A stretch of 64,000 nt of DNA from Escherichia coli (GCF_003334405.1 NZ_QOWM01000004.1), one strand, 5' to 3'. Positions 10,737-12,527 are shown, counted from the first letter of the stretch. Numbers and translations are program-made. The notes: generated by a model from the letters alone, not told the origin.

Positions 10737-10772
10737 AGCTAACACGTGTACGCTGAACAAGTCCGATCAGTT
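10737..10772 (-). promoter_or_regulatory. fabA promoter operators: FabR palindrome AGCGTACACGTGTTAGCT and FadR site AACTGATCGGACTTGTT
   Basis: Both sequences read on the minus strand 40-75 nt upstream of the fabA start; site identities from recalled literature. Confidence 0.6.
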
Positions 10773-12527
10773 CGGAATAAACCAGTTCAGCCAACGTAAT
10801 GGCCATGGAAAACGGTGACGTCCTTCCTGTTGCGATGCTTGCGCGATACGTTCCTGGATGGTTTGCATCAGCGTCGTTTGGCCTTCGCCATCCCACACCA
10901 GATTTAATAATAACGGCAGTGCGTCAGTCACATCGTCTACTGCCCAGATGGTGAATTTGCCTTCTTCTACCGCTTTCACCAGTTCACTGTGAAGACTTAA
11001 ATGGCGAACGTTAGCTGTGGGGATAATGACACCTTGTTTCCCGGTTAACTCACGTTGCTGGCAAATAGCAAAGAAGCCTTCGATTTTCTCATTTAAACCA
11101 CCGACCGGCTGGGCGCGACCGAACTGATCGACTGAACCTGTGATAGCGATACTCTGATTCACCGGCACATCGGCGAGGGCGCTTATCAGGGCGCAGAGTT
11201 CAGCCATCGAGGCACTATCTCCATCAACTTCACTGTATGACTGCTCAAATGTCAGCGATGCTGAGAAGGGGATCTGTTGCTCAAGCTGTAGTTCCGACAT
11301 CAGGAACGCTTGCATGATCATCATCCCTTTCGCATGGATATTGCCGCCAAGCTCCGCTTTGCGTTCGATGTCGGTGAATTCACCATCGCCAATATGCACA
11401 ACGCAGCTAATGCGAGAAGGTTCGCCAAAAGCGCGTGGATGACCCGGAAATTCAATGACCGAAAGGGCGTTAATTTGCCCGATGCGTTCGCCTTCGGTTT
11501 CAATCAGGATTTGCTCCTGAAGGATCTCATCCTGCATACGTTCAGCGAGGAAACCTTCGCGCCATTCACGCTGCTGCAGCATTAAGTTTAGCTGCTCGCC
11601 GGAGAAGGTGTCGCCATCACACAGGGAGGCGACCTCTTTACACTGGCGGAGGATCCACTGCGGGCTAAGCGGAAGTGTTTCTTGTTCACCGGTGTAGCGT
11701 GCTGCTTCGCGGATAAGTATCGGCCAGGCATCCGCTCCCGGTGCAGGTAAGTGATTATGTCTGGCGGTAAATGTCACCCAGCGACACCACTGGGTTACTG
11801 ACTCCGCATCGACAATCTGCAGAGTATCTTCAAATTCGCTATAAATAGCCTGCTCTGAAAGCTCTGGCTCCATCTCCTGGAAATCAGCCAATGATTCGCG
11901 TTCGCCTACCAGAATGACTTTCAGCTTCAATGGCATCGAAGGCACAGAGACGGGGAGAGGGCGCGACTCATCAAACGCAACCCAGTCAAAACGCTCGCGG
12001 TTAACGATATTTTTCAGCCGCATCCACAGCAGAGGTTGCGCCAGCAGTGTACGCAAAGAGATAATGAGAATACCGCCATTTGCCTGATGCACCAGACCAG
12101 GCTGCAGGGTAATGTCGCCATTAAACTGGCGCAGGCAGCCAAAGAGTTGCTCCGCTTCTACCCAGTCGGCAGCGACAACTTGCGTTAAAGTCGCAAAATT
12201 ATCATCTGCACTCACTGCGTGACGTAAGCGGATGGAGTGGCCGGAAACCTCATAGTGACCGCCCACCAGTTGGCCTGCATCGCTTTGTAGCGTACGCGCG
12301 GCATTGGCAATAAGATTCAGATACTCAGACTCTTCCGGGGCCTTCGCCAGCATAAAAGAGGAGGATGCTCGCGTATGCAGCAACTGCTCCAGCGCAAATT
12401 GCAGCCGCGGTTGAGTATCACTGAATAAAGGATCGTTTTCGTCAATCAAATGTGGCTGAGCAAATATTTCCTGATAGCTATCGGTATCAGGAACCAGGTC
12501 ACGCCATGCAAGTTTCGTAATGGTCAA
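10767..12527 (-). CDS. ycbZ: Lon-like protease YcbZ (LonH), no recognisable AAA+ module
   Basis: 586-aa ORF; C-terminal Lon proteolytic domain with Ser (DGDSAS) and Lys (GGLNEKIEG) dyad motifs; no GxxxxGK[ST] Walker A seen. Confidence 0.9.

Follow-up and report, generated by a model that had tools for sequence, protein, structure and literature searches.

The window analysed here is a 64,000-nucleotide stretch of Escherichia coli DNA (GCF_003334405.1, NZ_QOWM01000004.1), in which the annotated gene order around ycbZ, also named lonH, is pqiC, rmf, fabA (-), ycbZ (-), matP (+) and ompA (-). The coordinates of ycbZ, of the regions of its product and of the sites at its junction with fabA are collected in Table 1. 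The ycbZ open reading frame is identical to the RefSeq CDS encoding WP_000156518.1, the product of which is named 'AAA family ATPase'. The surrounding region (10100-13200) shows 100% identity to many complete E. coli genomes and belongs to the E. coli chromosome, and ycbZ itself is found in 5426 out of 5426 complete genomes of the species (at least 80% coverage). It is a long-annotated, ordinary E. coli gene, and both the gene and its domains are already present in public databases.

Table 1. Features of ycbZ and of the ycbZ-fabA junction, with positions counted from the first letter of the window.
Feature	Position	Strand	Remarks
ycbZ (lonH) CDS	10767..12527	-	586 codons and TGA, TTG start; ORF list, translation and RefSeq CDS with the same ends
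Degenerate AAA+-like alpha/beta subdomain	11832..12527	-	aa 1-232; without the LonC helical hairpin extension
P-loop (Walker A) equivalent	12321..12344	-	aa 62-69, KAPEESEY; acidic loop replacing GxxGxGK[ST/H]
Walker B equivalent	12051..12077	-	aa 151-159, GGILIISLR; Asp replaced by Ser, catalytic Glu by Leu
Alpha-helical lid subdomain of the AAA+-like module	11520..11807	-	aa ~241-336; from AlphaFold2 helices and MtaLonC alignment
Lon (S16) proteolytic domain	10893..11495	-	aa ~345-545; predicted catalytic Ser438 and Lys481, both LonC-type insertions (C489-G496; L516-V520)
C-terminal aromatic/basic tail	10770..10814	-	aa 572-586; stall site Pro585 (10773-10775) / Asn586 (10770-10772)
FadR operator of the fabA promoter, AACAAGTCCGATCAGTT (plus strand)	10756..10772	.	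overlaps the ycbZ Asn586 codon and TGA
FabR palindrome of the fabA promoter, AGCGTACACGTGTTAGCT on the minus strand	10737..10754	.	within the published fabA probe
fabA	10180..10698	-	68 nt downstream of ycbZ, same strand; RefSeq annotation

With regard to the start codon, no obvious Shine-Dalgarno sequence was seen in the 20 nt upstream of the TTG (CAACAGGCTAAAAAACATCAAC-TTG; 12525-12545, minus strand). The choice of this TTG is supported by the homologues of YcbZ, which align from residues 1-8. An exhaustive search of 1.84 billion representatives retrieved 3100 homologues at E <= 0.001. One database entry, the 717-residue protein P0004, consists of a YcbZ with 99% identity fused to HhH-GPD glycosylase domains (PF00730, PF00633) and is encoded on a 4.3-kb contig; the fusion is probably a chimera of assembly or gene calling. 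The annotated neighbours of ycbZ gave no sign of a defence-island context, and a reading as a defence system was rejected, the PADLOC match being only marginal (CARF_LON, E 0.0034).

A reading made from the sequence alone had assigned to YcbZ a Lon-type protease domain with a Ser-Lys dyad, on account of the motifs DGDSAS and GGLNEKIEG. Both motifs were found, the first at aa 435-440 (DNA 11208-11225, with Ser438 encoded by 11214-11216) and the second at aa 476-484 (with Lys481 encoded by 11085-11087). The Pfam search that had been suggested as a check returned two domains, a partial AAA_32 and a Lon_C, the latter at aa 435-539 (4.2e-10). The solved structure closest in sequence is, by far, that of MtaLonC/TTC1975 (E 1.2e-57, YcbZ aa 140-547 on 296-691); archaeal LonB 3k1j comes next (1.6e-15). 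Ser438 and Lys481 of YcbZ align with the catalytic S582 and K625 of MtaLonC. A match of this significance, with the dyad falling on the catalytic residues of the homologue, implies that the two motifs did not arise by chance. Moreover, S438, D437, G436 and Q458 are invariant in an alignment of 149 diverged homologues, K481, C489 and A519 are each at least 90% conserved, and the DGDSAS and GG(V/L/I)NEK surroundings of the dyad are kept throughout. The MtaLonC alignment and this conservation thus bear out the assignment of a genuine and conserved Lon protease domain.

Two insertions in the proteolytic (P) domain, relative to LonA and LonB, define LonC (PMC3391209). The alignment with MtaLonC runs without gaps over both of them (K634-G640 and V660-V664), and the corresponding segments of YcbZ read C489-QQR-E-L-T-G496, in which one Gly is changed to Glu, and L516-VK-A-V520. 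As judged from these alignments, the C-terminal domain of YcbZ is shown to be a complete Lon P domain with Ser438 and Lys481 as its predicted dyad. The residue preceding the catalytic Ser also sets it apart from LonA, where a Pro at this position (PKDGPSAG) serves as a criterion of the type (PMC9569914), whereas YcbZ has an Asp.

The state of the dyad bears on another view of the protein, according to which YcbZ would be mainly a non-proteolytic scaffold or chaperone whose Lon-like domain serves assembly or binding, as it does in RadA/Sms, ComM, BrxL or the heptameric chaperone LonC. We consider this unlikely, since the catalytic Ser shows no variation in the 149 diverged homologues, which keep the Lys and the motifs as well, and since the chaperone activity of LonC has been attributed to its hairpin extension, which YcbZ does not have. 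As for the other proteins with Lon-like domains, namely BrxL, RadA/Sms, ComM and CARF-Lon (CalpL), they carry partner domains different from that of YcbZ, and most of them either have no Ser-Lys dyad or use it differently.

The sequence-only reading had further described YcbZ as being without an apparent AAA+ ATPase, which proved wrong with regard to anatomy, as AlphaFold2 and Foldseek revealed a complete fold made of the AAA+ alpha/beta and lid subdomains. The AlphaFold2 model, built from 149 diverse homologues, has a mean pLDDT of 95.5 and a pTM of 0.91. In Foldseek comparisons, it matches the MtaLonC crystal structures over ~610 columns with a TM of 0.82-0.83 and TonLonB with a TM of 0.71, the whole-chain TM with LonA chains being about 0.3-0.4. 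The partial match to Pfam AAA_32 (LonB-like AAA) covers aa 140-225 and model positions 35-124 of 133 (1.4e-13). In the lid, helices are predicted at residues 241-257, 265-279, 289-300, 310-324 and 326-336; this stretch aligns to MtaLonC 394-483, and its residue R277 is at least 90% conserved in the 149 aligned sequences. The model thereby shows that the predicted structure of the N-terminal two-thirds of YcbZ keeps the AAA+ alpha/beta and lid fold.

The part of LonC that YcbZ does not share is the helical hairpin. Pfam gave no LonC_helical (PF20437) match in YcbZ, the hairpin segment of LonC is deleted in the alignment, and the AlphaFold2 model has short beta-hairpins at aa 87-142, where LonC has the helical hairpin. 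The long-form relative P0198 does match LonC_helical PF20437. No transmembrane segment was detected in YcbZ either, the top 19-residue Kyte-Doolittle mean being 1.54 and lying inside the P domain.

That YcbZ has no Walker A motif, another point of the sequence-only reading, was confirmed, since none of the patterns GxxxxGK[ST], [GA]xxxx[GA][KR][ST] and GK[ST] matches anywhere in the 586 residues. A random protein of this length would also be devoid of the motif, and its absence carries information only in view of the AAA+ fold of the region. To locate the P-loop equivalent, we aligned two profiles locally, one covering residues 1-100 of 44 short-form proteins and the other residues 1-150 of 63 long LonC-like proteins. 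The alignment is collinear and places the corresponding stretch of YcbZ on VYVMGPSGTGKT of the long relatives (hhalign E 1.5e-4, probability 52%). As this probability is just 52%, the placement is supported mainly by its fit to the strand (58-62), loop and helix (67-80) predicted by AlphaFold2. If so aligned, the loop has the same length in YcbZ and in the long forms, GKT is changed to SEY, and the loop is now acidic. Two other placements were set aside: a global hhalign of short- and long-form N termini put aa 1-85 on the hairpin end with low confidence and was uninformative on the P-loop, and MAFFT scattered aa 55-80 over the hairpin gap in the 149-sequence alignment.

The Walker B region is also altered. 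The segment GGILIISL of YcbZ aligns to GGYLILDA or GGYLVINA of LonC-like proteins, GYLILDA being the 'Walker B-like' motif of MtaLonC (PMC3391209), and both acidic positions are gone; a Walker B of the form hhhhDE is absent from YcbZ, the aligned position reading IISL. As to whether a cryptic but functional nucleotide-binding fold might be hidden in YcbZ, a possibility that the sequence-only reading had raised against itself, the fold is indeed there, whereas the replacement of the P-loop and of the Walker B acidic residues argues that it is not a functional one.

The fate of these motifs was followed in the family by sorting the best 150 of the 3100 homologues into length classes, with fragments shorter than 530 aa excluded, and by inspecting the first 140 residues. 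Among the 38 proteins of up to 610 aa (YcbZ type), neither the canonical GxxxxGK[ST] nor any other GxxxxGK occurs. The 29 proteins of 611-700 aa include none with the canonical motif and four with another GxxxxGK, while among the 70 proteins longer than 700 aa these numbers are five and 30, respectively, so that any GxxxxGK is found in 35/70 long forms versus 0/38 short forms of the best 150 homologues. In the longest class, the other GxxxxGK is usually of the GK-H form, as in MtaLonC. Two proteins of about 660 aa (P0154 and P0160, from loci L007 and L010) were seen to keep the strand-loop-helix of the P-loop, e.g., NGFPGVDYE, with no Lys, and their hairpin region is reduced to a short remnant. 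Such intermediate forms suggest that the YcbZ type was reduced in steps from LonC-like ancestors. Judging by these comparisons, the family would form a series with LonC-like, hairpin-bearing proteins that retain a residual P-loop at one end and proteins devoid of both at the other, and YcbZ appears to stand at the reduced extreme.

A view opposed to ATP independence is that YcbZ is a genuine ATP-dependent Lon protease, using nucleotide through a non-canonical site. It could draw on the completeness of the AAA+ fold, on the names given to YcbZ by RefSeq, other databases and several papers (AAA family ATPase or putative ATP-dependent protease), and on the minority of the wider LonC-like family that has a canonical GxxxxGK[ST] (5/70 long forms). 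We nevertheless hold it to be highly improbable, given that YcbZ has no Walker A at any stringency, an acidic P-loop position and a Walker B stripped of Asp and Glu, that GxxxxGK occurs in 0/38 short-form representatives, and that the nearest solved homologue is ATPase-dead despite a retained P-loop. The equivalog models for the ATP-dependent types also score far under their cut-offs on YcbZ, namely, 85.7 bits versus 516.6 for LonB (TIGR00764, NCBIfam), and 31.3 versus 608 (TIGR00763) and 28.9 versus 891 (NF008053) for LonA. In terms of architecture, archaeal LonB (Thermococcus onnurineus, PDB 3k1j / 4zpx) is a working ATPase with canonical Walker motifs and a transmembrane insertion, YcbZ having neither the motifs nor the insertion, and LonA (E. 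coli Lon, or La) has an N-terminal LonA domain and Walker motifs, both missing from YcbZ. Of note, the product names in use clash with the total absence of Walker A and B residues, and other records of the family are named 'Lon protease family protein'. To call YcbZ an 'AAA family ATPase' or an 'ATP-dependent protease' is probably misleading.

The closest known proteins are LonC of Meiothermus taiwanensis (MtaLonC) and TTC1975 of Thermus thermophilus (MEROPS S16.007; PDB 4fw9, 4fwd, 8k8v). Experiments have shown that both have no ATPase activity and that their degradation of unfolded substrates needs no ATP (PMC3391209, PMC13069640), and in LonC the P-loop still binds phosphate, while the hairpin serves substrate recognition and chaperoning (PMC13069640). 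Like them, YcbZ has an AAA+-like module fused to a P domain, with degenerate Walker motifs in the former and both insertions in the latter. It differs from them by the absence of the helical hairpin extension, by the change of the phosphate-binding P-loop GPPSLGKH to KAPEESEY, by the loss of the Walker B Asp, by a chain ~150 aa shorter, by an added aromatic/basic C-terminal tail, and by its genomic tie to fabA in Gammaproteobacteria. Since the hairpin and the residual P-loop, which are two defining features of LonC, are missing, we file YcbZ as a reduced gammaproteobacterial variant of LonC and not as a member.

We propose that YcbZ is a LonC-like, ATP-independent, self-compartmentalising Ser-Lys protease, a reading to which we give a probability of about 0.7. 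From motif loss and homology we infer its protease activity, its oligomeric state, which in LonC is a hexameric ring, and its nucleotide independence. The earlier description of YcbZ as an ATP-independent Lon-like protease thus gains the support of the dyad, of the lack of an ATP-binding motif and of the MtaLonC/TTC1975 precedent, its ATP-independent part being still a deduction. In the mechanism that we envisage, the dead AAA+ module would act only as a ring-forming scaffold and as a gate above the proteolytic chamber, and ATP would be neither bound nor hydrolysed. A protease that makes no use of ATP would be expected to degrade only unfolded or unstructured polypeptides, or peptides able to diffuse in. 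As the LonC hairpin is missing, substrates would have to be selected by other means, possibly through the aromatic/basic C-terminal tail or a partner protein. The mechanism may also differ from that of LonC because YcbZ lacks both the phosphate-binding P-loop and the hairpin-dependent chaperoning of MtaLonC. If YcbZ is indeed an ATP-independent LonC-like protease without P-loop or hairpin, trapping of substrates with an S438A variant and assays with unfolded substrates free of ATP would be the fitting experiments, and the annotation should be corrected.

Our literature search found no enzymology or biochemistry on YcbZ, the molecular function of which is described as uncharacterised. Genetic data are available. 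According to papers that cite Gagarinova et al. 2016, PMC8848927 among them, deletion of ycbZ leads to more stop-codon readthrough. In lines evolved under erythromycin, ycbZ accumulates SNVs, indels and structural variants, and reconstructing its inactivation yielded a mutant with resistance to erythromycin and to several further compounds. In addition, the level of the YcbZ protein is increased in a tgt mutant. The readthrough phenotype and the loss-of-function alleles selected by erythromycin point to a role of YcbZ near translation. The gene is one of the last in E. coli without an assigned function, and its phenotypes are reproducible. The kind of enzyme proposed here, an ATP-independent Lon-like protease, is already known, and what goes beyond routine annotation is only the linkage to fabA and the coincidence of a ribosome stall with an operator.

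The C-terminal tail is a conserved trait of YcbZ-type proteins, both short and mid-length, that the long LonC forms do not have. The former end in aromatic and basic residues (e.g., RWLNWF, IKNWF, GWFTRLF or GFFSRLFGLR), whereas the ends of the latter are acidic or of low complexity. The last 20 residues contain on average 3.2 aromatics in the short, 1.6 in the mid-length and 0.74 in the long class; the difference between the pooled short and mid-length proteins and the long ones has p = 4e-12, a value that overstates the independence of related sequences. Residues 572-586 of the tail coincide with a fragment (565-586) from a two-hybrid screen with baits of the membrane-associated RNase E, in which this fragment and the full-length protein gave a signal. 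A membrane-binding amphipathic helix in the E. coli tail was not supported, the hydrophobic moment of 0.49 being reached by 57% of shuffled sequences (mean 0.52); peptides of MinD, FtsA and RNase E served as references in this test. The membrane-helix idea is a weak lead, and only the class-level enrichment in aromatics is significant.

At the end of the tail, ribosomes also stall very strongly, more so than on SecM, while Pro585 occupies the P site and Asn586 the A site (PMC8848927). Profiling, reporter assays and cryo-EM all validated this stall, which depends on P585, N586 and W579/L580 (PMC8848927). Its codons, CCG-AAC, adjoin and partly overlap the FadR operator of fabA. Beyond them, the sequence-only reading was right in having the ycbZ stop codon overlap this operator, the TGA at 10767-10769 lying inside AACAAGTCCGATCAGTT; it is the TGA of the operator half-site itself. 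The operator sequence is an exact part of the probe fabA_ec-BD, used in FadR/FabR EMSA (PMC4537474), which matches window positions 10727-10782 and also contains the FabR palindrome. As in SecM-type arrest peptides, a strong sequence-dependent stall at the 3' end of an open reading frame is followed by the next gene on the same transcript. The ycbZ stall differs from them in that it falls on the final sense codon of a gene for a full-size enzyme and in the lack of significant RNA structure in the intergenic region (z = -1.16 at the ycbZ-fabA junction).

An RNA-seq study reported that ycbZ and fabA form an operon, with a further promoter for fabA (PMC4161252). A terminator scan found no terminator-like hairpin in the gap between the two genes, and a sigma-70 scan of 10100-12800 found no promoter-like sites. 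The linkage of the genes was examined in a sample of eight diverged short or mid-length homologues with roughly 34-56% identity to E. coli YcbZ. In seven of these eight loci, fabA lies directly downstream on the same strand (L002-L004, L005, L006, L007, L008 and L010). In L005, the ycbZ-fabA pair is kept and all other neighbours are different; in L007, from Aeromonadaceae, a partial downstream ORF translates to FabA. The homologue of L009 is followed by pheS instead of fabA, and L011, which holds a long LonC-type gene with the helical hairpin, does not have it adjacent to fabA. Where the stop codon lies relative to the FadR site varies among these loci. In L002, which encodes the 57%-identical homologue, the scan places the TGA stop inside a FadR-like site with 4 mismatches to the consensus. 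In L008, from Aliivibrio, the same arrangement (CGCTGATCCGACTTGAT and then a FabR palindrome) was recognised by eye only, the scan being under threshold, and in L007 a FadR-like site occupies the last codons. The FabR palindrome is kept in these three loci. The site scan found no FadR-like site at the junction of the fabA-linked loci L005 and L006.

One could conclude from this arrangement that the 3' end of ycbZ is mainly regulatory, its arrest peptide and read-through transcription across the fabA promoter coupling the translation or transcription of ycbZ to fabA expression, and that the protease is secondary. The tandem kept in seven of eight diverged loci, in one of them with every other neighbour changed, the stop codon inside a FadR-like site in E. 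coli, in L002 and, by eye, in L008, the reported operon with no terminator between its genes, and a stall stronger than that of SecM are what speak for it. It appears quite improbable to us, because the invariant active site in an open reading frame of 586 residues makes selection on the protein clear, the intergenic RNA structure is not significant, two fabA-linked loci have no FadR-like site, and the stall-critical P585 and N586 are poorly conserved, as the authors of the stall study themselves note (PMC8848927). Furthermore, no experiment ties the stall to fabA, which the stall paper does not mention. A regulatory link between the stall and fabA is a lead, not a finding.

The tail and the junction can also be combined with the protease in a broader proposal, which we regard as unlikely. 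The YcbZ type would form a distinct, fabA-linked gammaproteobacterial branch of Lon-like proteases, whose conserved nascent tail would be an arrest peptide stalling the ribosome on the last sense codon. The FadR operator of fabA has this codon as its first base triplet, so that the arrest might tune fabA expression from the ycbZ-fabA transcript, and the mature tail might be a motif for localisation or partner binding (e.g., the membrane or RNase E) replacing the LonC hairpin. By themselves, the conserved link to fabA and the coinciding positions of stall and operator overturn nothing known, but they are a concrete and testable lead. On the other side of fabA, a GC-rich hairpin of 11 bp, accompanied by T-runs on both strands, occupies 10128-10152, between the convergent rmf and fabA; it is the only strong hairpin seen and looks like a bidirectional terminator shared by these two genes.
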